Assembly: GCA_041649015.1 (NCBI GenBank)
Contig: JBAZNU010000008.1
Coordinates: forward strand, 25,425-89,424
Source: Ignavibacteria bacterium
GTDB taxonomy: Bacteria; Bacteroidota; Ignavibacteria; Tepidaquicellales; Tepidaquicellaceae
Reading direction: 5' to 3'
DNA length: 64,000 nucleotides
Of this stretch, positions 21,391 to 64,000 are shown in pieces. The notes under the pieces are model-generated. The model saw only the letters and a list, made by a program, of their open reading frames with translations. It was not told where the DNA came from and searched no databases. How positions within the stretch are numbered: the stretch's first letter is position 1; each line of letters begins with the position of its first letter. Both the position numbers and the translations under genes were made by a program.

Positions 21391-23226
21391 ATGCTAAAAA
21401 GACTACTTTTAGTTGGATTGATTGCGATTATTGGTATTAGTACCGCTGACGCACAGTTCAGCAAGGCAGAGTGGAAATTCTTGTTAACACCTCACAAAAT
21501 GATGTATGGCGAGAATGTTTCAACGACAAGGGTTGACGGTAAGCCTGTTTTTTATGGATTACCTTCATTATCAGATTTGATTAGTAAGTTTAATAAATCA
21601 CGTGTTGATAGGTCAACTCAGGGTATTACTACTGAGATAGTTTTTACAGGAAGACAAACGGTTCTGGATTATCCTTCGAATAGTTCTCCTATTCAGGTAT
21701 GGCAGGATCCTTTAGAACCAAATAATATTCATGCCGTTACTATGTATAATGACGGCGGCTTGACGGGTACGAGGTTGACTTCTTATATTTTCTCGTCCGA
21801 TAGGGGTGCGACCTGGACTATTATTTGTGATGTTCCTTCGGTGAGGAGCGGTTTTTCAACGATTGATGGTTTCAGTGATGGGACGGCTCTAGTTACGACT
21901 CATACTGCCGACCCAGAAGTTGCTACGACTTACACGAGGAGTATGGCGTATAAGGATTTGGCACCGGGTGCGGGTTCTTTTACGAGGTTTACTCCTCCGG
22001 GATTGAATTTATACATCTGGGGAAGAATTATTCCTACGAAAGATCTTACTCAGACCAACAAGTTCGTTTTGATTTCTTCATTGAATGGCAGTGGAGATTC
22101 AGCGTTTATGACACGTTGTACTGATGTTTCATCAACACCGGGAACTTGGACAAACTGGAATTATATGCCAAATACAAATAATGCCGAAAAACATCCAATG
22201 GCAAGAGGAACTGATGGCAGAATAGGTCTTGCTTACATGGGAGTTGATACTTCTGCCAATGTCTGGTTTATGGAATCAACGGATAATGGAGCAACTTTCA
22301 GCGCTCCGTTAATGATATACCAATGGACCCCAACTTGGCATGTCTACGATACTGATTCCATATTCGCCGATTATGGTCCATGGACAAGTTTGGATATAGC
22401 ATATAAAGGAAATACTCCGGTCGTTACTTTTGAAGGAATATTGCAGCAAACTCCGGGATCTGCCAATACCGGTTTAGAATCAAAGATATTTTTCTGGTCA
22501 CAGGCGACAGGTGTTAAAGTTGTGGCTGATACTAACACTGTTCCATTTTTTCCGTTTGTAGGATTACAATATAATGATGCTTTTATGTCTCACCCGAGTA
22601 TTGGTACATCCGCAGATGGTAATGCAATTTTTATTTCGTTTATGGCAGCTTCAGGTGATATTGATGCTACAGATTCAACAAGCTTTTGCGATTCTTACTT
22701 GTACGCATCAAACGATGGTGGAATGACTTGGCCGATTCATGGAAAATTGAATCCGAATACACCTCGTAAAGACTGGAGATATCCAAATTTATCAAATTGG
22801 AACGACAACAATGGATTAACCTATTATGCTAATATGGTTGCAACTCCTGGGCTCGTAGCCGGTGTGTTTAATGGTAGTGCACCTGCATCTTTAGAGGATT
22901 TTACTTTTGTAAGAGCAGCTGTGACTTTTACTTCTATAAATACTGTTTCAACTGAGATGCCTGAAAAGTTCTCGCTTTCACAGAACTATCCGAATCCTTT
23001 CAACCCAACAACAAACATAAAGTTTGCTGTTGCAAAAGCCGGATTCGTTACTTTGAAAGTTTATGATTTATCAGGTAAAGAAATTTCTTCGTTAGTTAAA
23101 GAAAATCTTGCAGCCGGAACTTACAACTATGCATTTGACGGTGCAAAGCTCGCAAGTGGAATTTATTTCTACACGCTTACAGCTAATGGTTTCTCGGAAA
23201 CAAAGAAGATGATGTTAATTAAGTAA
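21391..23226 (+). CDS. secreted BNR/Asp-box (sialidase-like propeller) protein with a T9SS C-terminal sorting domain
   Basis: 611 aa. Signal peptide; Asp-boxes SSDRGATW, STDNGATF, SNDGGMTW. C-terminus ..FSLSQNYPNPFNPTTNIKF...SGIYFYTL......KKMMLIK is a type-A T9SS CTD pattern. Confidence 0.75.
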   Translation: MLKRLLLVGLIAIIGISTADAQFSKAEWKFLLTPHKMMYGENVSTTRVDGKPVFYGLPSLSDLISKFNKSRVDRSTQGITTEIVFTGRQTVLDYPSNSSPIQVWQDPLEPNNIHAVTMYNDGGLTGTRLTSYIFSSDRGATWTIICDVPSVRSGFSTIDGFSDGTALVTTHTADPEVATTYTRSMAYKDLAPGAGSFTRFTPPGLNLYIWGRIIPTKDLTQTNKFVLISSLNGSGDSAFMTRCTDVSSTPGTWTNWNYMPNTNNAEKHPMARGTDGRIGLAYMGVDTSANVWFMESTDNGATFSAPLMIYQWTPTWHVYDTDSIFADYGPWTSLDIAYKGNTPVVTFEGILQQTPGSANTGLESKIFFWSQATGVKVVADTNTVPFFPFVGLQYNDAFMSHPSIGTSADGNAIFISFMAASGDIDATDSTSFCDSYLYASNDGGMTWPIHGKLNPNTPRKDWRYPNLSNWNDNNGLTYYANMVATPGLVAGVFNGSAPASLEDFTFVRAAVTFTSINTVSTEMPEKFSLSQNYPNPFNPTTNIKFAVAKAGFVTLKVYDLSGKEISSLVKENLAAGTYNYAFDGAKLASGIYFYTLTANGFSETKKMMLIK

Positions 23227-53003: not shown

Positions 53004-53657
53004 ATGAAACATTCAAATTTATTTGTAATGATTTTAGTTATGTTTCTTTTCTTTGCAGTTAACACATCATATTCTCAGGTAACTGATAAAGACGGGAATA
53101 GTTATAAAACGGTTACAATCGGTAAGCAAGATTGGATGGCAGAGAATCTAAATGTTGAGCATTACAGAAACGGCGACCCAATTCCTGAAGTTCAGGATAA
53201 AGAGGAATGGGACAATCTAACGACGGGTGCCTGGTGCTGGTACGAAAACAACTCAGCGAACGGCACAACATACGGCAGGCTTTATAACTGGTATGCGGTG
53301 AATGATCCGCGCGGGCTGGCACCTGAGGGATGGCTTATACCCTCAAGCGATGAATGGAATAAACTTACGGATAATTTAGGCGGTGCAGAAACTGCGGGCA
53401 CAAAGCTGAAATCAACGAGCGGATGGAGTGAGGGGGGAAACGGAGATAACAAAAGCGGTTTTACTGCAATTCCGGGAGGTTACAGAACACATGACGGTTA
53501 TTTTTCAAACATGGGAAAGAATGCACTCTTCTGGACTTCTACAGAATTTAATTCAGCTAATGCCTGGTTTAGAAATGTAATAGGCAGTATTCCTGATGTA
53601 TATGCTCCGAATTACGGAAAGGATTTTGGGCTTTCTGTTCGTTGTGTAAAAGATTAA
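53004..53657 (+). CDS. FISUMP (Fibrobacter succinogenes major paralogous domain) protein
   Basis: 217 aa. Signal peptide; ..DKDGNSYKTVTIGKQDWMAENLN.., ..YGRLYNWYAV.., ..GW.IPS..EW..L.., ..FWTSTE.., ..GLSVRCVKD. Confidence 0.75.
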   Translation: MKHSNLFVMILVMFLFFAVNTSYSQVTDKDGNSYKTVTIGKQDWMAENLNVEHYRNGDPIPEVQDKEEWDNLTTGAWCWYENNSANGTTYGRLYNWYAVNDPRGLAPEGWLIPSSDEWNKLTDNLGGAETAGTKLKSTSGWSEGGNGDNKSGFTAIPGGYRTHDGYFSNMGKNALFWTSTEFNSANAWFRNVIGSIPDVYAPNYGKDFGLSVRCVKD

Positions 53658-53669
53658 TATAAAAATATT

Positions 53670-54323
53670 ATGAAAAGAATAACAAAATATACATTAGCGC
53701 TAAGCGCTGTTCTGTTTCTATTTACAGGCATATCATTTTCCCAAGTTACGGATAAAGACGGGAATGTTTACGAAACAGTTAAGATAGGTTTACAGGAATG
53801 GTCGGCTGAAAATCTTGTAGTTACACATTACAGGAACGGCGATGAAATACCACAAGTGCAGGATGCAAATGAATGGTCGAAACTTAAAACCGGTGCATGG
53901 TGCTGGTATGAGAACAAAACAGAAAACGGGAAGACGTACGGCAGGCTTTACAATTGGCATGCAGTGAATGACACGCGTGGTCTTGCACCTGAGGGCTGGC
54001 ATATATCGACCGATAACGACTGGCAACAGCTCATTGATTTTCTTGGCGACTGGATGACATCAGGGCAGAAATTGAAGGGTAAGAACGGCTGGTTTAATGA
54101 TAAGAACGGCACCGATGAAAGTGGTTTTAATGCTGTCCCGGGCGGAATACGAGATTCAGACGGCGACTTTTATGATTACTTAAAGTTTGGATGTTTTTGG
54201 ACTTCGACAGAGAATAATGAGGCAAACGCGTGGTATTATTTTGTAATCCACAACTATACTGATGTAGCAAGGTTTGATGGTGCGAAAGAAAGAGGATTAT
54301 CGGTGCGGTTAGTAAAGGATTAA
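53670..54323 (+). CDS. FISUMP domain protein, tandem paralog
   Basis: 217 aa; same motif series as the preceding gene (..DKDGNVYETVKIGLQEWSAENL.., ..YGRLYNWHAV.., ..FWTSTE.., ..GLSVRLVKD). Confidence 0.75.
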   Translation: MKRITKYTLALSAVLFLFTGISFSQVTDKDGNVYETVKIGLQEWSAENLVVTHYRNGDEIPQVQDANEWSKLKTGAWCWYENKTENGKTYGRLYNWHAVNDTRGLAPEGWHISTDNDWQQLIDFLGDWMTSGQKLKGKNGWFNDKNGTDESGFNAVPGGIRDSDGDFYDYLKFGCFWTSTENNEANAWYYFVIHNYTDVARFDGAKERGLSVRLVKD

Positions 54324-54344
54324 ATTTTCATAGTTTTTACATTC

Positions 54345-54379
54345 AAAAAGGGTGAAATTGCAATAATTTCACCCTTTTT
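54345..54379 (+). terminator. strong intrinsic terminator
   Basis: A tract, 10-bp perfect stem gggtgaaatt / aatttcaccc, 5-nt loop, TTTTT. Confidence 0.85.
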
Positions 54380-54465
54380 CATTAATATTTGCTTGATATT
54401 TGGAAGAAATTCGAGATTTTTGATAGATTTTGGCGGAATTATTACAAAAACCGGAAATATAAACC

Positions 54466-54631
54466 CTATATATAGAGCTATATAAGGGCCATATGAAAGC
54501 TATATGATAGCTATTTGCGAGCTATATGCGTTCTATATAAATTTCATATAAACTCTATATGAACGCTATATGGAAATATGGCATTTTCATGGTATGTTTA
54601 TGGGATGTTGATGGTATGTTCATGGGATGTT
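54466..54631. repeat. tract of about 15 phased 11-bp repeats in two sequence classes
   Basis: Hand alignment places CTATATG-type cores at 54466, 54478, 54489, 54500, 54511, 54522, 54533, 54544, 54555 and 54566, with some 1-nt variants. A transitional unit sits at 54577, then nATGGKATGTT at 54588, 54599, 54610 and 54621. Exact 11-bp phase holds from 54478 to 54631 (14 units). Confidence 0.9.
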
Positions 54632-54693
54632 AAAATAAAGAATTGTTATTACATAAAATTACAAAGCAGTTCTTTTTTATAAACTGCACACCT

Positions 54694-54717
54694 GAATATT
54701 TCTCCTGGGAAATATTC
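54694..54717. promoter_or_regulatory. perfect 9-bp inverted repeat, operator-like
   Basis: GAATATTTC-tcctgg-GAAATATTC, in the non-coding region between the phased repeat tract and the first propeller gene. Confidence 0.5.
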
Positions 54718-54868
54718 AATTGTAAACTCACTACAAAGATACAAAAAATATAAATTAAAGTAAAGGAAAAAATTGATATTGGATTAACAATTTTTCAATG
54801 ATTTAAATATTAAGATTCTTTCGATTTTTCATACCTGATTCCGTACAAGCATTTTTTGCATTCTCAAA

Positions 54869-55012
54869 ATTTATATTGAATAAATTGATTCAAATGTATA
54901 ATTTATGTTAATAACGTTTTTTATAAATCAACTCATAAAAGACTATGAAAAAACTGATTTTCCTCCTCACAGCAGTTTTACTCGTAACCGCACAGCTATA
55001 TTCACAATGGGT
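54869..55012 (+). repeat. duplicated promoter + 5'UTR + signal-peptide block, copy 1
   Basis: 144 bp that align with 56257-56400 with about 6 mismatches by hand. Contains TTGAAT-15 nt-TATAAT (54876-54902) and the first 23 codons (MKKLIFLLTAVLLVTAQLYSQWV). Confidence 0.9.
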
Positions 55013-56225
55013 ATTACAGTCAACACCAACCACAAATGCACTCGAAGCAATTTTTGTTGTAAATGCAAACGTAATATATGCAGCGGGTGATGATGAAACA
55101 ATAATTAAAACAACAAACGGCGGTGTGAACTGGTTTTTGCTGCGTGAGAATGCAGCAGGTAAAGATTATCTTGACGTTTATTTTGTGAATGAAAATACGG
55201 GTGTAGCGGTTGGCGGGCTTTCCTCACCAATAAGAGTTGGTTTAATATCAAGAACTACAGACGGCGGTTTGCACTGGGTTGATTTTATTACAACTGACGG
55301 AAACTTTCTCGCTTTACAATTTGTAAATTCATTTACGGGATATCTTGGGGGCTGGGTGAATTCGGCTTCAATGTCACCTGTTTTGAAAACTACAAATGCC
55401 GGTGTGACCTGGCTGGCGGCAGTGCCTTTCAACTGTTATGGTATTGAATGTTTTTCATTTTTAAATGAGACAACCGGTTTTGCAACAGGAAGCTATTCAG
55501 GCGGCGAGGCGATTTTCAAAACAACAAACGGCGGTTATTCGTGGACATTGCATTCAAACTTTGGCAATGGTTTCTGGCTTTGCTCGGTTTTCTTCGTGAA
55601 CGCAAACACGGGCTGGGTTTCGGGAAATCAGTCTTCACCCTGGGGAGGTCTGCTGAGAAAAACAACTAATGGAGGTGTGAACTGGACTCATCAAACGAAT
55701 GCGAATACGAATGAAACATACGAGTTGTACTTCCTGAATGAAAACACAGGCTGGGTTGCGGGGGATTCACCAAAAATTCAAAAGACAACAAACGGCGGCG
55801 TGAACTGGTTTACGCAGTCAACACCATCAGGATGGTGGATGTGGGATATTCAGTTTATTAATGAAAACACCGGCTGGGCTGCGGGTTCACAAGGTAAGGT
55901 CTTTTTTACAATTAACGGCGGCGGAACGGTATCAGTGCAGAATATATCGACTGAAATACCTAATTCTTATTCGCTCAGTCAGAATTTTCCGAATCCGTTT
56001 AATCCGAGAACAGTTATCAGCTTTCAGCTTCCAGCGGTCAGTGATGTGATGCTAAAGGTTTATGATGTTACAGGGAAGGAAATTGCGACACTTGTGAATG
56101 AAAGGCTGCAGGCGGGATCGTATGAAACCACTTTTGACGGGAGCGGACTTAATAGCGGGGTGTATTTTTATAGACTAACTACGGATGGTTTTTCAGAAAC
56201 GAAGAGGATGGTGCTAATTAAATAA
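54945..56225 (+). CDS. secreted Ycf48/BNR-like beta-propeller protein with T9SS CTD (paralog A)
   Basis: 426 aa. Signal peptide; repeated ..KTTNGG.NW.. Asp-box-like blades. CTD ..YSLSQNFPNPFNPRTVISFQLPAVSDVMLKVYDVTGKE...SGVYFYRLTTDGFSETKRMVLIK. Confidence 0.8.
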   Translation: MKKLIFLLTAVLLVTAQLYSQWVLQSTPTTNALEAIFVVNANVIYAAGDDETIIKTTNGGVNWFLLRENAAGKDYLDVYFVNENTGVAVGGLSSPIRVGLISRTTDGGLHWVDFITTDGNFLALQFVNSFTGYLGGWVNSASMSPVLKTTNAGVTWLAAVPFNCYGIECFSFLNETTGFATGSYSGGEAIFKTTNGGYSWTLHSNFGNGFWLCSVFFVNANTGWVSGNQSSPWGGLLRKTTNGGVNWTHQTNANTNETYELYFLNENTGWVAGDSPKIQKTTNGGVNWFTQSTPSGWWMWDIQFINENTGWAAGSQGKVFFTINGGGTVSVQNISTEIPNSYSLSQNFPNPFNPRTVISFQLPAVSDVMLKVYDVTGKEIATLVNERLQAGSYETTFDGSGLNSGVYFYRLTTDGFSETKRMVLIK

Positions 56226-56256
56226 ATTTTAAAATCTCAGCAGCGAAAGCCACGGG

Positions 56257-56400
56257 ATTTATATTGAATAAATTGATTCAAATGTATAATTTATGTTAAT
56301 AGTGTTTTTTAGAAATCAAACCATAAAAGACTATGAAAAAACTGATTTTCCTCCTCACCGCAGTTTTACTCGTAACCGCACAGCTATATTCACAATGGGT
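56257..56400 (+). repeat. duplicated promoter + 5'UTR + signal-peptide block, copy 2
   Basis: See copy 1. The TTGAAT-15-TATAAT element recurs at 56264-56290. Confidence 0.9.
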
Positions 56401-57619
56401 TCAGCAGATATCACCAACCCCTGCTTCGCATTACAATATTCTTTTTCTGAATAGTCAGACGGGTTATATATCGTCCGTGAGTGGTATTATTTTAAAGACG
56501 ACCGACGGAGGTACTAACTGGGATATGCCAACTCCAATTACATATTTAAATGTATTTGATATTTATTTCATCGATATAAATACGGGTGTTGCGGTTTGCA
56601 GTAACACATCGACATTTAATTCATCTATTTATAAAACAACAAATGGCGGCACAAACTGGGTTTTAAAGTTTAGTGGAAGTCGAATTGCATTAAGAGGGGC
56701 ACTTCAATTTATAAATTCTGATACCGGCTATGCAGGTGGATGGTCGATTGATACGGCCTTAGTAAAAACAACTGACGGCGGAGAGAGCTGGCAAAGAGTT
56801 TACGTCAGCGGAGCTATAGGTATAGATAAGATTTGTTTCATCGATGCAAACACAGGGTATATGGCAGGGTATGGTATGGATAGCAAACCTTCTGTGTTAA
56901 AGACAACGAACGGCGGTCTTAACTGGACGAAAATATATTCCCATTCAAATGCTATGATGTTTATGTCAATGTATTTTGTGAATGCTTACACAGGCTGGGT
57001 AGTGGGAACAAGTGCATCAAACCAAAGTTTAATTCAGAAAACAACAAATGCAGGTGTTAACTGGGTTGACCAGATGAACCAGCACCCTGCCAACTGGGAA
57101 CTGTACAACATTGAAATGATAAATGAAAATACAGGATGGATAGTAGGAGATGCAGGTCAAATAATTAAAACCACAAATGGAGGAACGAACTGGAGAGCAC
57201 AGGTTGATCCTTCGCCGGGTCCTTATCAACCATTATATGCTGTTGATTTTAATAATGCCGATACAGGGTGGATAGTTGGAGGTAATGGAAGAATATATAA
57301 AACAACAAACGGCGGCGGAACGGTATCAGTGCAGAATATTTCGACTGAAATACCGTCTGCGTATTCATTAAAGCAAAACTATCCGAACCCGTTTAATCCG
57401 AGAACAGTTATCAGCTTTCAACTTCCAGCCGTCAGTAACGTGATGCTAAAGGTTTATGATGTTACTGGGAAAGAAGTTGCGACGCTTGTGAATGAAAGAC
57501 TGCAGGCGGGTACGTACGAAACCACGTTTAACGGGAGCATACTTAATAGCGGCGTGTATTTTTACAGACTTACTACGGATGGTTTTTCGGAAACGAAGAG
57601 GATGATGATGATAAAATAA
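56333..57619 (+). CDS. secreted Ycf48/BNR-like beta-propeller protein with T9SS CTD (paralog B)
   Basis: 428 aa. Signal peptide identical to paralog A, divergent propeller (..KTTDGGTNW.., ..KTTNGGTNW..), near-identical CTD. Confidence 0.8.
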   Translation: MKKLIFLLTAVLLVTAQLYSQWVQQISPTPASHYNILFLNSQTGYISSVSGIILKTTDGGTNWDMPTPITYLNVFDIYFIDINTGVAVCSNTSTFNSSIYKTTNGGTNWVLKFSGSRIALRGALQFINSDTGYAGGWSIDTALVKTTDGGESWQRVYVSGAIGIDKICFIDANTGYMAGYGMDSKPSVLKTTNGGLNWTKIYSHSNAMMFMSMYFVNAYTGWVVGTSASNQSLIQKTTNAGVNWVDQMNQHPANWELYNIEMINENTGWIVGDAGQIIKTTNGGTNWRAQVDPSPGPYQPLYAVDFNNADTGWIVGGNGRIYKTTNGGGTVSVQNISTEIPSAYSLKQNYPNPFNPRTVISFQLPAVSNVMLKVYDVTGKEVATLVNERLQAGTYETTFNGSILNSGVYFYRLTTDGFSETKRMMMIK

Positions 57620-57625
57620 TTTACT

Positions 57626-57650
57626 AATCCCACTGAATGCTGGGGATTTT
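57626..57650 (+). terminator. weak hairpin, possible terminator
   Basis: aatccc-(11-nt loop)-gggatt followed by tt. Confidence 0.3.
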
Positions 57651-57672
57651 ATAATTATTAAATCATAAAGAT

Positions 57673-58887
57673 ATGAAATATATATTTGTTGTTTTAGTAA
57701 TGCTCATTACAATGAATGTAAGCGGGCAATGGCAAAATGCTTCAAACGGACTTTTAGGAGGTTCTGTATGCGGATTTACAACTATCGGTACTGATATATA
57801 CACTGCAGCATCTTTTTTCACTGGTCCAGAAATTACTGACTCTTCCGGAATATTTCGTTCTACAAACAACGGTTTAAGCTGGACCCCAACAGCATTTTTT
57901 CCACTGCGAATAATAAATATATTCGCAAACGGTTCACGCTTGTTTGCCTGTACTAATAATCAAGGAACATATTACACCGATAATTTTGGTGCAAGTTGGA
58001 CTTCGATGAACTTAGAAATTAGTTCTTTCGGTTCGAACAGCACACATCTTTTTGCCACATCAAATCCCAATTTATTAGTATCAACTAATAACGGAACAAA
58101 TTGGGCCACTATAAACTCAATTTACGGTCGATTGCTCATTAACGGAAGTAATGTTTATGTTTATGGTTCTAATTATATCAATATTTCTTCTAACAATGGT
58201 GTGAATTGGTCAACTTCATATTTATATACATATGAAATATCTTTAATGACAGCTTTAGGAAATGAACTTTATGCCGTAACTTATTCCTCAGGAATTATAA
58301 AATCTACAGACAATGGTTACACCTTTAATCAAACATCACAATTCAGCAGCTCAATCATAAAATCATTAATTGCATTTGGAACATGTGTAATTGCTGGAGC
58401 TTGGGGCAGTGGAATAATTATTTCAACAAATGGAGGTATATACTGGATACGTAAGAATGAGGGTTTTGATGGAGACGATTATATAATAACAAATCTTTTG
58501 TATGCAAACGGTTATGTTCTTGCAGGTCGTGCTTATTATTCAAGTGGATTCCAATCATACAAAGTATGGAGAAGAGACTTTCAGGAATTAGTATCTGTAA
58601 ACGAAATATCATCTGCATTACCATCAAAGTATTCACTATCGCAAAACTATCCGAACCCGTTTAATCCGAGAACTAAAATTAGTTTTCAGTTGTCAGTTGT
58701 TAGTTTATCGACATTGAAAGTATTTGACATTACGGGAAAGGAAGTTGCGACGCTTGTGAATGAAAGGCTGCAGCCGGGGACGTATGAAACCACTTTTGAC
58801 GGGAGCGGACTTAATAGCGGCGTGTATTTTTATAGACTGACGACGGATGGTTTTGCGGAGACGAAAAGGATGGTATTAATAAAATAA
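57673..58887 (+). CDS. secreted beta-propeller-like protein with T9SS CTD (paralog C)
   Basis: 404 aa. Signal peptide; blades marked by STNNGLSW, TDNFGASW, STNNGTNW, SSNNGVNW, STDNGYTF, STNGGIYW. CTD ..YSLSQNYPNPFNPRTKISFQL... Confidence 0.75.
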   Translation: MKYIFVVLVMLITMNVSGQWQNASNGLLGGSVCGFTTIGTDIYTAASFFTGPEITDSSGIFRSTNNGLSWTPTAFFPLRIINIFANGSRLFACTNNQGTYYTDNFGASWTSMNLEISSFGSNSTHLFATSNPNLLVSTNNGTNWATINSIYGRLLINGSNVYVYGSNYINISSNNGVNWSTSYLYTYEISLMTALGNELYAVTYSSGIIKSTDNGYTFNQTSQFSSSIIKSLIAFGTCVIAGAWGSGIIISTNGGIYWIRKNEGFDGDDYIITNLLYANGYVLAGRAYYSSGFQSYKVWRRDFQELVSVNEISSALPSKYSLSQNYPNPFNPRTKISFQLSVVSLSTLKVFDITGKEVATLVNERLQPGTYETTFDGSGLNSGVYFYRLTTDGFAETKRMVLIK

Positions 58888-58892
58888 TTACC

Positions 58893-60116
58893 ATGAAAAA
58901 ATTATTAGTAATCTTAGCAATGCTCTTATCAATGAACACTATTGCGCAGTGGATGCCAACATCTGCACCATTAGGCGGAACGGTTAATACATTAGTTTAT
59001 TCAGAATCAAATATTTTTGCAGGAACACAATACAATGGAGTATTCTTATCAACTAACCATGGTACAAACTGGACTGTCAAAGGATTAATGGGTATGGAAA
59101 TAACATCGCTTGCAGTATCAGGTTCAAACATATTTGCAGGTGCAAATAACAGCGGAGTATTTTTAACGACAAATAATGGCTCCAACTGGACTGCTGTAAA
59201 TAACGGTTTAAGCGGTCAAATCGTAAAGGCAGTTGCTGTAGTGGGCATGAATGTTCTTGCAGGAACCTATAACGGAGGAGTTTTCTTATCAACAAACAAC
59301 GGAGCAAATTGGTCATCTGCCGGTTTAACAGAGAGAGGTATCTGGACATTTGCGGTTTCAGGAACAAGTATATATGCCGGAACATACAACACCGGTGGAG
59401 TATATTTATCAACTGATAACGGAGCGAACTGGTCCTTAAAAGGATTAAACAATATTCCCATTTGGTCACTTGCGGTTTCAAGTTCAAATATATATGCGGG
59501 TACAGACGGCAGTGTGTATTCATCGATAGATAATGGCACAAACTGGACGGAAAATGTATTAACAAGTGCAACCTTTAGAATCAGGAGTATTGTAATATCC
59601 GGCGATAGAATCTTTGCGGGATTTTCCGACCAGGATGCATTTCATGGTGATGGTGTATATTTATCTACAAATAACGGTGTAAACTGGATGAATAAAAATC
59701 AGGGATTCAACTACCCTCCACCTTCTATTCATTCATTACTTATTGTTAACAGCATTATATATGCAGGAGCATTTTCTAATACATCAGGGTCTGTATGGAA
59801 AAGAGAACTTTCCGAAATACTACAAATACAAATGATAAGCACTGAAATACCTTCAGCATTTTCACTATCGCAAAATTATCCCAATCCATTTAATCCGAGA
59901 ACAGTTATCAGCTTTCAGCTTCCAGCGGTCAGTGATGTGATGCTAAAGGTTTATGACGTTACAGGGAAAGAAGTTGCGACACTCGTGAATGAAAGACTGC
60001 AGGCGGGAACGTATGAAACCACTTTTGACGGGAGCGGACTTAATAGCGGGGTTTATTTTTATAGACTAAGCACACTTGATTTTACAGAAACAAAAAGGAT
60101 GATTATGATTAAATAG
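58893..60116 (+). CDS. secreted beta-propeller protein with T9SS CTD (paralog D)
   Basis: 407 aa. Highly regular ~40-aa blades (..A.SGSNIFAGT..GGVFLSTNNG.NW..). CTD near-identical to A/B/E/F at the nucleotide level. Starts 5 nt after the paralog C stop. Confidence 0.8.
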   Translation: MKKLLVILAMLLSMNTIAQWMPTSAPLGGTVNTLVYSESNIFAGTQYNGVFLSTNHGTNWTVKGLMGMEITSLAVSGSNIFAGANNSGVFLTTNNGSNWTAVNNGLSGQIVKAVAVVGMNVLAGTYNGGVFLSTNNGANWSSAGLTERGIWTFAVSGTSIYAGTYNTGGVYLSTDNGANWSLKGLNNIPIWSLAVSSSNIYAGTDGSVYSSIDNGTNWTENVLTSATFRIRSIVISGDRIFAGFSDQDAFHGDGVYLSTNNGVNWMNKNQGFNYPPPSIHSLLIVNSIIYAGAFSNTSGSVWKRELSEILQIQMISTEIPSAFSLSQNYPNPFNPRTVISFQLPAVSDVMLKVYDVTGKEVATLVNERLQAGTYETTFDGSGLNSGVYFYRLSTLDFTETKRMIMIK

Positions 60117-60262
60117 TCCGCCGTGGAGGACTTTACCGGAAGTCTTAGTTTATCCCGATGTTCTTTATCGGGAATAACTAACAGTATCGGGATTATTATT
60201 GAAATAAATCAATCCCCGTTGTGAGAATAGCGGGGAATTTAAAAACATAAATTTTATGAGGA

Positions 60263-61552
60263 ATGAAAAAGTTAATTGTTATACTTCTTATGTTGATTTG
60301 CAATGTTGCTATTTCTCAGACGGGTTGGTTTTTGCAAACAACTCCTACAACAAAAAATTTACTGGATATTTTCTTCATAAATTCTCAGACAGGCTGGGCT
60401 TGCGGAGATTCGGGAAGAATTATAAAGACAACGAACGGCGGGAGTATCTGGACTGAGATACCTCCTTTTACAGTAAGCAAATTGAATGTAATAAGATTTT
60501 ATAATTCCAATTTCGGATATGTAGCAGGGGGTTTGCAAACTCAGGATCCGTTTTGTATTGATAATGATATTCTTGCAAAGACTACAAACGGAGGAGAAAC
60601 CTGGACAACGCTACTTTCAAATTCAACGTGGGATATCTTTTATGACCTTGCTGTCTTGAACAAAGATACAATTTTTGCAACTTATGCCGGTACAGATAAT
60701 TTTTGTATGGGTTCATCAGGCGGAACGTACAGTTCATTCAACGGTGGCAGCAATTGGAATCAATTTGGCAATGGTTGGATGAAAGGAATCTCATTTATAA
60801 ACTCAAGCACAGGATGGGCAACAACTTACAGTATTAGTGATGTAATGATTGGATTTTTTGGAGTTTTGAAAACTACTAACACAGGTGTGAACTGGAATTT
60901 AGTATATGGTGATACTACCTTGGGAGGTTCATACATTGGAAAAATAAGATTCGTTGATGCAAATAATGGATATACTTTTAAGAGAATGCTTCGTAAAACA
61001 ACAAATGGCGGTGTGAATTGGCAAATAGTTGATTCGGCAACTACATACTTTGTAAATAGTTTTGCTCTTGCTAACAAAGATACAATATGGATATTAAAAA
61101 ATTCTAACTCAGTTTTAAGAACAAACAACAGCGGGGCTAACTGGATTCAGCAATTATCCGCGGGAGGTTTAAACTCAATTTATTTTCTCGATAAAAACTC
61201 AGGTTGGATTGCAGGCAACAACGGAATAATTTATACAACTGTGACGGGAGGTTTGACAGATGTTCAGAATATTTCAACTGAGATTCCTTCAGTGTATTCA
61301 TTAAAGCAAAACTATCCGAACCCGTTTAATCCGAGAACAGTTATCAGCTTTCAGCTTCCAGCGGTCAGTGATGTGATGCTAAAGGTTTATGATGTTACAG
61401 GGAAGGAAGTTGCGACGCTTGTGAATGAGAGGCTGCAGGCGGGGACGTATGAAACTATTTTTGACGGGAGTGGACTGAATAGCGGGGTGTATTTTTATAG
61501 ACTTACTACAGATGGTTTTTCGGAGACAAAAAGAATGGTATATTTAAAATAA
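60263..61552 (+). CDS. secreted Ycf48/BNR-like beta-propeller protein with T9SS CTD (paralog E)
   Basis: 429 aa. Signal peptide MKKLIVILLMLICNVAISQ; ..KTTNGG..W.. blades; conserved CTD. Confidence 0.8.
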   Translation: MKKLIVILLMLICNVAISQTGWFLQTTPTTKNLLDIFFINSQTGWACGDSGRIIKTTNGGSIWTEIPPFTVSKLNVIRFYNSNFGYVAGGLQTQDPFCIDNDILAKTTNGGETWTTLLSNSTWDIFYDLAVLNKDTIFATYAGTDNFCMGSSGGTYSSFNGGSNWNQFGNGWMKGISFINSSTGWATTYSISDVMIGFFGVLKTTNTGVNWNLVYGDTTLGGSYIGKIRFVDANNGYTFKRMLRKTTNGGVNWQIVDSATTYFVNSFALANKDTIWILKNSNSVLRTNNSGANWIQQLSAGGLNSIYFLDKNSGWIAGNNGIIYTTVTGGLTDVQNISTEIPSVYSLKQNYPNPFNPRTVISFQLPAVSDVMLKVYDVTGKEVATLVNERLQAGTYETIFDGSGLNSGVYFYRLTTDGFSETKRMVYLK

Positions 61553-61558
61553 TAAATT

Positions 61559-62482
61559 ATGAATAAGATAATATTTGTTTTATTGCAGATAATATTTATT
61601 ACTATGATCTCAAAAGCAGCAGATACAGTTTCTGCCAAATATTTACCCCTTGCCGTCGGGAATAAATGGGTGTATTTAAAAGCATCTTCAATGGGTGGTT
61701 CTTATATCTATTCAATTACCGTAACACAAATTACAAAAGATACTGTTATTAATAACAGAAAATATTTCTATACAAACATTATCCCTTCAGTTTCCGCATA
61801 CTGGATTCGTTATGATTCCACTAATGGACAAATTAAAATGTACGCAAATTATGCTCCAGATTGTAATTATGAACGAATGTATTATGATTTGTCGGTTAAT
61901 GTAGGCGATTCCTGCAATAATTCGTATATGCCATGTACAATGAATAATTATTATTGCACTCAGATAAAGGACACCTCACTTTTCGGAATAATTACGCGAA
62001 TAAAAACCTATTATTACTCATTTTCGATACATAATGGTGGTAGTACAAAGACAGAAAATTTTGCGAAAAACATTGGTTGCTATTCTGATATTTCACATGT
62101 AGCAAGTGTCTACGGTCAAAATCATAACATTTACACTTTGAAAGGCTTTGTAATTAACGGCCAATTATACGGCGATACAACTTTAACATTTATTAATACA
62201 ATTAGTACAAATATCCCGGGGAAATATTCACTATCGCAAAACTATCCGAACCCCTTTAATCCGAGAACAGTTATCAGCTTTCAGCTTCCAGCGGTCAGTG
62301 ATGTGATGCTAAAGGTTTATGATGTTACAGGGAAAGAAGTTACGACGCTTGTGAATGAAAGTTTACAGCCGGGGACGTATGAAACCACTTTTGACGGGAG
62401 TGGACTGAATAGCGGTGTGTATTTTTATAAACTGATTGCGGATGGTTTTACAGAGACGAAACGAATGTTATTAGTAAAATAA
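61559..62482 (+). CDS. secreted protein with an unrelated N-terminal domain and the same T9SS CTD (paralog F)
   Basis: 307 aa. Signal peptide; Cys/Tyr/Asn-rich ~200-aa domain without propeller blades; CTD ..YSLSQNYPNPFNPRTVISFQLPAVSDVMLKVYDVTGKEV.. Confidence 0.75.
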   Translation: MNKIIFVLLQIIFITMISKAADTVSAKYLPLAVGNKWVYLKASSMGGSYIYSITVTQITKDTVINNRKYFYTNIIPSVSAYWIRYDSTNGQIKMYANYAPDCNYERMYYDLSVNVGDSCNNSYMPCTMNNYYCTQIKDTSLFGIITRIKTYYYSFSIHNGGSTKTENFAKNIGCYSDISHVASVYGQNHNIYTLKGFVINGQLYGDTTLTFINTISTNIPGKYSLSQNYPNPFNPRTVISFQLPAVSDVMLKVYDVTGKEVTTLVNESLQPGTYETTFDGSGLNSGVYFYKLIADGFTETKRMLLVK

Positions 62483-62531
62483 ATTCTCGGTGAAAACAAT
62501 TGAAATGTTTAATTTGTAATATTTGAATAAA

Positions 62532-63542
62532 ATGAAAAGACAAATTGCAGCATTTGCTGCTATAGCAATGATATCCATTGCATTAATTTCGTGCGAAAAC
62601 AGTGTTATTAATAATAATACCCCGATCCCTCAAGATAACTTCTTATTCAACGTTTGGGATTATTCTGAAACACATTATTTTGTTGATACTTTGTACAGAC
62701 GTTCTTTTACGGAGTATTACAGGGATAGTATGACAACTTATTTAATTTCGAATTCAATAATTGAAAGCCCCACGCAGCCGCTTGAAGTTTGGGTTCAGTG
62801 TGATGTCACAATTGCGGAAAAAAGATTTTGTGTCGGTAAAGTTATGCTTGGGGAACGACCGCCGCAGGGATATGACACATCTGTTACAAATCCTGAGACT
62901 GTAATGGGTGAAAAGTTTGCGGGTTATTTCAGGAAATTAGGACCTTCGGAATATTATCACAATAATCTTGCAGGGTTTATCGGTTTGAATATTTCGGTTC
63001 CCGAAAACTATCATGTGGGTGTGGTTTACAGGAATTATTCTAATCAAATGTTTGGAAAGGGTTTTATTGAATCACTTCCGACAGATACGATTGTATTGAA
63101 ACTGGTAAAGGTTGATAATCAAAGTCCGGATTTAACACCGCTTGCGTGGAAACTGAAGATGAAGAATGTTTATAAGATTCCATATACAAATCTACAAAAT
63201 TCAACAACAATAAAAACAGGGTTCAATGAGAATAATGTTTACCGCGATACAATCACAGGCTATACAACTCCACTGATAACTATGCTAAAGCTTGACAAGG
63301 TTAATAACACAACATTATTACCACCGCCTGATGGAAAGTTTGATTGGTTGAACGGAAAAACAATTTTCCCTGCAGAGGGTTATTTGGTTTTTCCTACGCT
63401 CGAACCGTTTGGAAGGGATTTGCCTTTGTCGCCTAATGATTCCAATTATTGCTATTTTGAAATTTATTCAATGAGGAAAACTAGTGCCCAAATTAGTCAC
63501 AAATCAATTTATTATGCAATTAAAGGCAACGCGGTTTATTAA
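62532..63542 (+). CDS. hypothetical lipoprotein (no CTD)
   Basis: ATG at 62532 is preferred over the TTG at 62523. Lipobox-like ..ISIALISC-ENS; no recognisable domain and no T9SS CTD. Confidence 0.55.
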   Translation: MKRQIAAFAAIAMISIALISCENSVINNNTPIPQDNFLFNVWDYSETHYFVDTLYRRSFTEYYRDSMTTYLISNSIIESPTQPLEVWVQCDVTIAEKRFCVGKVMLGERPPQGYDTSVTNPETVMGEKFAGYFRKLGPSEYYHNNLAGFIGLNISVPENYHVGVVYRNYSNQMFGKGFIESLPTDTIVLKLVKVDNQSPDLTPLAWKLKMKNVYKIPYTNLQNSTTIKTGFNENNVYRDTITGYTTPLITMLKLDKVNNTTLLPPPDGKFDWLNGKTIFPAEGYLVFPTLEPFGRDLPLSPNDSNYCYFEIYSMRKTSAQISHKSIYYAIKGNAVY

Positions 63543-63587
63543 TGTAATAAAAGAAGTTCTTAAAATTTAGAATAGAGTTATTTGAGA

Positions 63588-64000
63588 TGAAAAATATATT
63601 TATAGTTTTGATAATGCTTGCGGCGATTAACTCAAATGCTCAGTGGGAACAGTGTGATGGTCCGCGCGGAGGCTATCTCCGTGTTTATACCCTTGCCATA
63701 AAGGGAAACAGTATTTTTATGGGCACAGATTTTGATGGTGTATCTTATACTACAAATAACGGAGCGAGCTGGATACAAACTTCTTTAAATAATAAAACTG
63801 TATATTCTCTTGCCATAAGCGGAGATAATATCTTTGCCGGGACACAGGAGGGTGTCTATCTCTCGACAAATAACGGAATAATTTGGACACAAACTGCATT
63901 GAATAATTATGAAGTTCCATCACTTGCGGTATCAGGAAATAATATATTTGCGGGGACACTTTCCGGCTTTTATAAATCAACAAATAACGGATTGACTTGG
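63588..64000 (+). CDS. secreted beta-propeller protein of the paralog D type, 3' end runs off the window (not in the ORF track)
   Basis: Hand translation from ATG 63588: MKNIFIVLIMLAAINSNAQWEQCDGPRGG...LAIKGNSIFMGT...YTTNNGASW...LAISGDNIFAGTQEGVYLSTNNGIIW...LAVSGNNIFAGT...STNNGLTW, open to the window end. Confidence 0.75.

Follow-up and report, generated by a model that had tools for sequence, protein, structure and literature searches.

Evidence for concerted evolution of the C-terminal sorting domain in an array of type IX secretion cargo genes of an Ignavibacteria bacterium

The cargo array and its genes

The stretch of DNA analysed here, called the window, is 64,000 nucleotides (nt) long and corresponds to positions 25425-89424 of contig JBAZNU010000008.1 (C8:25425-89424) in a metagenome-assembled genome (MAG) of an uncultured Ignavibacteria bacterium (assembly GCA_041649015.1; 3.2 Mb, 12 contigs, 36% G+C). 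Its last part holds an array of type IX secretion system (T9SS) cargo genes, the products of which combine a variable N-terminal head with a C-terminal domain (CTD), the sorting signal. A preliminary description of the window had reported at least seven such genes on one strand, and there are in fact eight, named A to H, all on the plus strand between 54945 and 67356 and thus extending beyond the window end. When the contig was followed past that end, gene G, which the window cuts, was completed at 684 amino acids (aa), H was found to follow it with the same tail, and after H four further CTD genes, I to L, converge on the array from the minus strand up to window-equivalent position 73681. Each of the genes A to H is complete and has a start codon, a putative signal peptide and a CTD of its own. 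The gaps from A onward are 107, 53, 5, 146, 6, 40 and 44 nt, and the one interleaved lipoprotein gene, between F and G, does lack a CTD as had been described. The genes on which this study rests are as follows.

54945-56225, plus strand: gene A, 426 aa, putative signal peptide, head a Ycf48/BNR-like beta-propeller, type-A T9SS CTD
56333-57619, plus strand: gene B, 428 aa, Ycf48/BNR-like propeller and CTD
57673-58887, plus strand: gene C, 404 aa, BNR/sortilin-like propeller and CTD
58893-60116, plus strand: gene D, 407 aa, BNR/sortilin-like propeller and CTD
60263-61552, plus strand: gene E, 429 aa, Ycf48/BNR-like propeller and CTD
61559-62482, plus strand: gene F, 307 aa, Cys/Tyr-rich head without a family match, and CTD
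62523-63542 (alternative start 62532), plus strand: lipoprotein gene, 339 aa, lipobox LISC, no CTD
63587-65641 (window-equivalent end), plus strand: gene G, 684 aa, at least 12 NIFAGT/STNNG.NW blades and array-type CTD
65749-67356 (outside the window), plus strand: gene H, 535 aa, BNR_2 propeller and array-type CTD
68266-69729 (window-equivalent; C8:93690-95153), minus strand: gene J, Kelch-propeller head and CTD

The Por_Secre_tail family (PF18962, cut-off 27 bits) was matched by A to F at 40.9-43.0 bits, in agreement with the earlier statement that all six genes complete within the window end in a CTD, and by G and H at 36.4 and 43.6 bits, respectively; F also matched TIGR04183 (44.5 bits against a cut-off of 23). 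Pfam likewise agrees with the head types that had been proposed. The heads of A, B and E are PSII_BNR/Ycf48-like propellers, those of C, D, G and L are BNR/Sortilin-Vps10-like propellers, and F, described as a non-propeller, matched no Pfam family in its head, its NCBIfam match being confined to the CTD. Among the other heads H is a BNR_2 propeller, J a Kelch propeller, and I and K are FG-GAP proteins. The heads belong to at least four unrelated types. The genome also has a gene for the translocon SprA, an open reading frame (ORF) of 2206 aa at C5:91025-97645, the first 420 aa of which alone score 190 bits against TIGR04189. Judged by the CTD profiles and by the presence of the translocon, the array genes can be assigned to the type-A T9SS cargo, and from what holds for the family the products of A to H are presumably exported by Sec, after which the CTD would be recognised by the SprA/PorV translocon.

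By eye, the N-termini of the array genes are of the MKK type, followed by a hydrophobic stretch and then by Q. This Q stands after the predicted signal-peptide ends of A to E and G (…YSQW, …SGQW, …IAQW, …ISQT, …NAQW; window 54945-63650) and resembles the 'Q-rule' of Bacteroidetes, which was not found consistently across the Fibrobacteres-Chlorobi-Bacteroidetes (FCB) superphylum outside Bacteroidetes (PMC5837995).

Histories of heads and tails

The tail was taken as the last, CTD-coding 264 nt of each of the genes A to H. Between genes the tails were 72-87% identical in nucleotides and 75-92% in amino acids, with a mean of 0.10 nonsynonymous (dN) and 0.73 synonymous (dS) substitutions per site, whereas those heads that could be aligned were only 46-53% identical in nucleotides and 33-45% in amino acids and were saturated at synonymous sites (proportion of differing synonymous sites, pS, 0.67-0.79). 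The earlier impression, formed by eye, that the tails are far better conserved than the heads therefore holds when computed. The CTDs of the two cargo genes at 21391 and 50860 had been called much more divergent, and so they are, with 60% and 44% aa identity, respectively, to the array tails, compared to 85% on average (minimum 76%) among A to H. That the tails are near-constant is true of one part of them and overstated for the rest. From about 240 to about 150 nt before the stop codon there is a sharply bounded core of about 100 nt in which seven of the eight tails are 92-96% identical, whereas the flanks (the first 45 and the last 63 nt) are 75-77% identical.

The same boundary is seen at synonymous sites. 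Over the whole tail pS was 0.37-0.40, but in sliding windows over the column-wise alignment it fell to 0.08-0.14 in the core and was about 0.6 (0.5-0.7) in the flanks. The tails had also been considered as old and merely constrained, given the whole-tail dS of about 0.7, and this was dropped because the column-by-column alignment with sliding pS revealed a recently converted core. The homogenised segments, and a patch of deviating sequence in the tail of C, are located as follows.

56004-56159, plus strand: homogenised tail core of A, nucleotide identity 0.90 with a peak of 0.92-0.96, pS 0.08-0.14 in the centre
57398-57553, plus strand: homogenised tail core of B
58666-58821, plus strand: homogenised tail core of C
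59895-60050, plus strand: homogenised tail core of D
61331-61486, plus strand: homogenised tail core of E
62261-62416, plus strand: homogenised tail core of F
58665-58749, plus strand: J-like patch of 85 nt in the tail of C

Genes that are not neighbours share identical runs of 68-95 nt, among them 95 nt between A and G, 90 nt between E and G and 87 nt between A and E. When the 172 polymorphic sites of the tails were permuted in the manner of GENECONV, a check that the preliminary description had proposed, most tail pairs gave a significant signal of recombination, and in 10 pairs not one of 2000 permutations reached the observed run (p<0.0005). The tail of C is a mosaic. Its patch is 78% identical to J and 85% to a tail in a related genome (G008_7197m) but only 67% to the array consensus, and on both sides it is bordered by sequence of the array type (86% and 93%).

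For comparison between species the 339-aa lipoprotein gene served as the anchor. It was found in 40 of 41 related genomes, and the DNA surrounding it was compared from nine congeners; related genomes carry labels such as G001, G005 and G008, the window's own genome being G000. Orthologues of the heads were recognised at 71% aa identity for B (G005_3321), 91% for C (G005_4674), 79% for D (G008_992), 79% for G (G008_2245) and 84-86% for J, K and L. Heads that have orthologues at 71-91% in other species must predate the species splits, and with dN/dS of about 0.1-0.3 at orthologue dS values of 0.17-0.9 these heads have evolved under purifying selection. The tails have behaved differently. The head of C differs from its orthologue at a dS of only 0.17, whereas the tails of the same two genes are saturated at synonymous sites and 77% identical in amino acids, and in nine of nine orthologue pairs the dS of the tail exceeded that of the head. 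The best match of every tail from A to H is a paralogue in its own genome, and the plus-strand array of each genome has a tail type of its own, with genome-specific insertions of 8 aa in G005 and 6 aa in G001. Paralogous tails within a genome are thus more alike than orthologous tails between genomes. When 35 tails were placed in a maximum-likelihood tree, the genome labels were strongly clustered (none of 500 shuffles was as low); for all groups together 11 changes were needed compared to a mean of 23.7 after shuffling, a value that none of 200 shuffles reached. Approximately unbiased (AU) tests rejected four head-orthologue pairs as tail clades (p = 8e-10, 2e-8, 0.017 and 8e-5). The preliminary description had named congruent trees of heads and tails with no recombination signal as one observation that would speak against its proposal; the histories of heads and tails are incongruent, heads grouping by orthologue and tails by genome. 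Together with the homogenised synonymous sites of the core and the permutation test, these results support the view that the sorting domain has evolved in concert within the array.

These data also bear on whether any conversion is needed at all. The array might have arisen by recent tandem duplication with very fast divergence of the heads, while protein constraint kept the tails alike. A tail dN/dS of about 0.14 does indicate purifying selection, and propeller repeats are able to diverge fast. Against this, the heads are of at least four unrelated types and older than the species splits, and yet the tails differ more between orthologues than between paralogues; in addition, synonymous sites of the core are homogenised and the vertical topology is rejected by the AU tests. 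We therefore regard this explanation as hardly credible.

The explanation that we favour, with a probability of roughly 0.85, is that the locus is an island of T9SS cargo genes with old and divergent heads, the tails of which are kept alike by gene conversion. Each gene would be a complete unit consisting of a Sec signal peptide, a propeller or other head, a short linker and a CTD of about 80 aa. The heads are old and mostly unrelated or strongly diverged, and the tails of the eight same-strand genes would have been homogenised by repeated, short, non-reciprocal homologous recombination between direct repeats, with conversion tracts that centre on the core (about 100 nt) and end raggedly within the CTD. 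RecA-type conversion is the probable agent. Homology in the tails and similar signal-peptide ends would further permit unequal exchange by which head modules are added, deleted or replaced over evolutionary time, and this would explain why congeners carry different sets and orders of heads beside the same anchor gene. The number and order of genes around the anchor do in fact differ in every one of the congeners examined (n=9). The homogenisation is probably in the main a self-reinforcing by-product of the only homology that these genes share, rather than a programmed switch.

Some observations weigh against this explanation or limit it. Outside the core about half of the synonymous sites differ between tails, which means that the greater part of the tail has escaped recent conversion and that conversion is infrequent on the time scale of the species splits. 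As the source is a MAG, chimeric assembly across strains could add some mosaicism. Selection for a single CTD class near the lipoprotein is not separable from neutral conversion. An artefact of assembly was considered improbable, since no identical run exceeds 95 nt and the same architecture occurs in independent MAGs.

Exchange is not confined to the tails. Genes A and B, which are 41% identical in their heads and 86% in their tails, share a block around the start codon.

54869-55012, plus strand: 5' block of A, about 76 nt of upstream sequence and the first 23 codons (signal peptide)
56257-56400, plus strand: 5' block of B, a copy of 54869-55012

In an ungapped comparison the two blocks, 145 nt from -76 to +68 around the ATG, differ by about 5 mismatches, and a repeat search also grouped them into one family; they look as if the 5' module border had recently undergone a short conversion or a duplication. 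Related genomes offer further cases. In G005 the gene that follows the orthologue of C (G005_5969; G005:C39 5969-7504; L024:3768-5303) matches E at 96% of its first 50 coding nt and has a CTD of the array type, but its head of about 350 aa has no similarity to that of E, and in G005_7520 the signal-peptide sequence of D (92%) precedes a head that shares only about 50% identity with that of D. On the minus-strand side the head of J is orthologous to that of G008_10170m (85%), whereas its tail matches G008_7197m at 85% and that of its orthologue at only 49% (G008:C49 7197-11636), a replacement of the tail on this side as well. The shared 5' blocks, the signal peptides of E and D on other heads and the tail of J indicate that recombination at both module borders has been reshaping the array over evolutionary time. 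Swapping of modules therefore has partial support from these comparisons, and the earlier suggestion that the tails are homology tracts for swapping of heads is plausible, the combination found in G005_5969 being what comparison adds to it.

From the same features the preliminary description had gone on to propose a possible surface-diversity system, which in its programmed sense would mean donor and expression cassettes with heads swapped at high frequency in order to vary the cell surface. Variable heads flanked by shared 5' (signal peptide) and 3' (CTD) blocks would fit such a system, as would a locus that is a hot spot of gene-content change between congeners. The proposal is not supported by what else was found. 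All eight genes from A to H are full length and have a start codon and a putative signal peptide, promoterless or truncated copies do not occur, and among them there are no silent incomplete donor cassettes that could feed one expression site. A repeat search of 53600-64000 found no inverted repeats of at least 25 nt, the four matches of the genome to tyrosine recombinases (PF00589) all lie off contig C8, serine recombinases not having been searched for, and no match to a reverse transcriptase (RVT_1) was found anywhere in the genome. The orthologous heads, as described above, are under purifying selection, and the synonymous divergence of the tail flanks shows that exchanges are rare. A programmed system is for these reasons very unlikely. 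As to particular mechanisms, a diversity-generating retroelement was rejected for lack of RVT_1, and an invertible promoter and a shufflon for lack of inverted repeats of that length and of a tyrosine recombinase on the contig. Consensus scans for promoters and terminators gave sites no more numerous than expected by chance.

Homogenisation of tails may not be peculiar to this locus. A hidden Markov model (HMM) derived from the tails identified 210 CTD-bearing ORFs among the 2738 ORFs of at least 120 aa (about 8%). Pairwise aa identity among the 210 CTDs had a mean of 47% and a 99th percentile of 72%, and same-strand neighbours averaged 64%. A to H form the largest homogeneous array in the genome. 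In two other arrays, C4:230214-240763 (5 genes) and C7:157695-179291 (6 genes), the tails were 81-86% identical while the mean product of head identity and coverage was 21-27%, compared to 17% in A to H. As these arrays show the same contrast, array-wise homogenisation of tails looks like a property of the genome and not of one locus, the orthologue test having been run on the A to H locus only. Upstream of the array, at window 53004-54323, there are two tandem secreted proteins of 217 aa with FISUMP domains (TIGR02145).

The SprA-related lipoprotein

The lipoprotein encoded between F and G aligns over 308 aa, at 49% identity, with residues 344-651 of SprA (2206 aa) from the same genome. Against TIGR04189 it scored 96 bits (cut-off 200) and matched profile positions 373-587 only. 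A phmmer search of the PDB with the lipoprotein gave no match, and it was a profile search that brought up SprA: a profile of 26 homologues matched residues 272-357 and 430-680 of SprA from F. johnsoniae (E = 1e-24). An AlphaFold model from the single sequence was unusable (predicted local distance difference test, pLDDT, 30), but one from the alignment of 26 sequences reached a pLDDT of 85 and a predicted template modelling score (pTM) of 0.81, and its only matches in the PDB were SprA chains (Foldseek E = 5e-18, TMq 0.66-0.69), the top match being a CTD-bound complex. The lipoprotein is thus a stand-alone paralogue of SprA residues 344-651. With 339 aa and a score below the cut-off it is a paralogue at the level of a domain and not a translocon. 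It shares the sequence and the predicted fold of one segment of SprA/Sov (TIGR04189; PDB 6H3I, 8GL6), which has about 2200-2400 aa and a 36-strand barrel, whereas the lipoprotein lacks a barrel but has a lipoprotein signal.

The family falls into 57 clusters with lengths of about 335-348 aa. Wherever a cluster's source is named, it belongs to the Ignavibacteria, in one case under the label Candidatus Kapaibacterium. The annotation of named clusters is either hypothetical or 'cell surface protein SprA', and a Pfam domain is found in none. In 10 of the 12 family f1 loci examined (those of the window's own genome, G001, G005, G008, G009, G012, G013, G014, L030 and L038), the lipoprotein gene has a same-strand CTD gene as its immediate neighbour on at least one side. 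The exceptions are G003, in which no CTD gene is adjacent, and G006, in which the nearest one lies two genes upstream. Its distant stand-alone relatives in Ignavibacteriaceae have no cargo genes beside them. In-frame stops were seen in two orthologues, at G013:C14:193416-194390 (TAA) and at G006:C1:1917923-1918933 (TGA); in G006 a single CTD gene is left near the stop-bearing gene, and the two may be decaying jointly.

This leads to the question whether the uniformity of the array tails is the product of selection, with conversion merely the means. In that case the lipoprotein would be a dedicated receptor, chaperone, surface anchor or decoy that reads the CTD class of its neighbours, and selection to fit it would maintain the homogeneity of the tails. 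The contact of type-A CTDs with SprA itself buries about 1000 A^2, and Q452 of SprA has been named as a contact of the CTD (PMC10994853). This residue falls inside the stretch of F. johnsoniae SprA (272-680) that aligns with the lipoprotein. The flanking of the lipoprotein by same-strand CTD genes in most f1 loci points the same way, as do its purifying selection (dN/dS 0.17 compared to G005) and the conservation across species of the C-terminal half of the adjacent CTDs (GTYETTFDGS.LNSGVYFY). Co-adaptation is harder to reconcile with the exceptions G003 and G006, with the stops in the frames of G006 and G013 and with distant relatives that have no cargo beside them, and other arrays of the genome are homogenised without such a lipoprotein. 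A role in binding the array's CTDs is attractive as a hypothesis, although we consider a function of this kind rather unlikely; if true it would amount to a private sorting sub-route inside a genome with about 210 T9SS substrates.

Related systems and significance

The closest system described is that of the KLIKK protease clusters of Tannerella forsythia. As described by Ksiazek et al. 2015 (PMC4404884), these clusters combine different catalytic heads with a nearly identical C-terminal extension and CTD, have lipoprotein genes scattered through them, and are missing from a sister taxon. In all these respects, clustered T9SS cargo with different heads, near-identical CTDs, interspersed lipoprotein genes and absence from a close relative, the two systems are alike. 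They differ in that the KLIKK heads are proteases and the heads here are beta-propellers or an unrecognised domain, and in that the KLIKK tails end in KLIKK, whereas the tails here end in [VLIM]-[LMY]-[ILV]-K (VLIK, MMIK, IMIK, VYLK, LLVK, LLIK and ILLK), which places them outside that group. In addition, a small unrelated lipoprotein gene precedes each KLIKK gene, but the present array has a single one that encodes the SprA-fragment paralogue, and its host belongs to the phylum Ignavibacteriota. Searching the KLIKK paper (PMC4404884) for the terms duplication, recombination and nucleotide turned up no analysis of conversion, whereas the present array has orthologue controls. A looser parallel is offered by the gingipains and HagA of Porphyromonas gingivalis, in which domain rearrangement and allelic exchange have been described (PMC5266723, Dashper et al. 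2017). These too are modular T9SS surface proteins with a conserved CTD that are shuffled by homologous recombination, but there adhesin modules are exchanged between dispersed loci and strains, whereas here the sorting domain itself is homogenised within a tandem array.

A full-text literature search that combined 'concerted evolution' or 'gene conversion' with T9SS terms found no paper on homogenisation of CTDs. Classical concerted evolution of tandem families is recognised by a greater similarity among the paralogues of one genome than between orthologues of different genomes, by mosaic tracts and by homogenisation at synonymous sites. The array has all three signs, but its conversion is limited to sub-genic segments of about 100-270 nt, and to some signal-peptide ends, among genes that are otherwise unrelated. 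It is a non-protease, Ignavibacteria version of KLIKK-like clusters in which conversion has been demonstrated with orthologue controls and which includes an unusual SprA-derived lipoprotein.

Sorting domains of the T9SS are usually treated as passive tags that are inherited vertically. Here the tag evolves in concert within an array and independently of its passenger, and the same apparently holds for two or more other arrays of this genome. Phylogenies of such CTDs are unusable for tracing the history of the cargo. The CTD repeats constitute a portable homology that drives the gain, loss and replacement of secreted-protein modules, and subclasses of CTDs may mark groups of substrates. Finally, the SprA-fragment lipoprotein, which is conserved next to the array in one family of Ignavibacteria, gives a way to test how the CTD is recognised outside the translocon.

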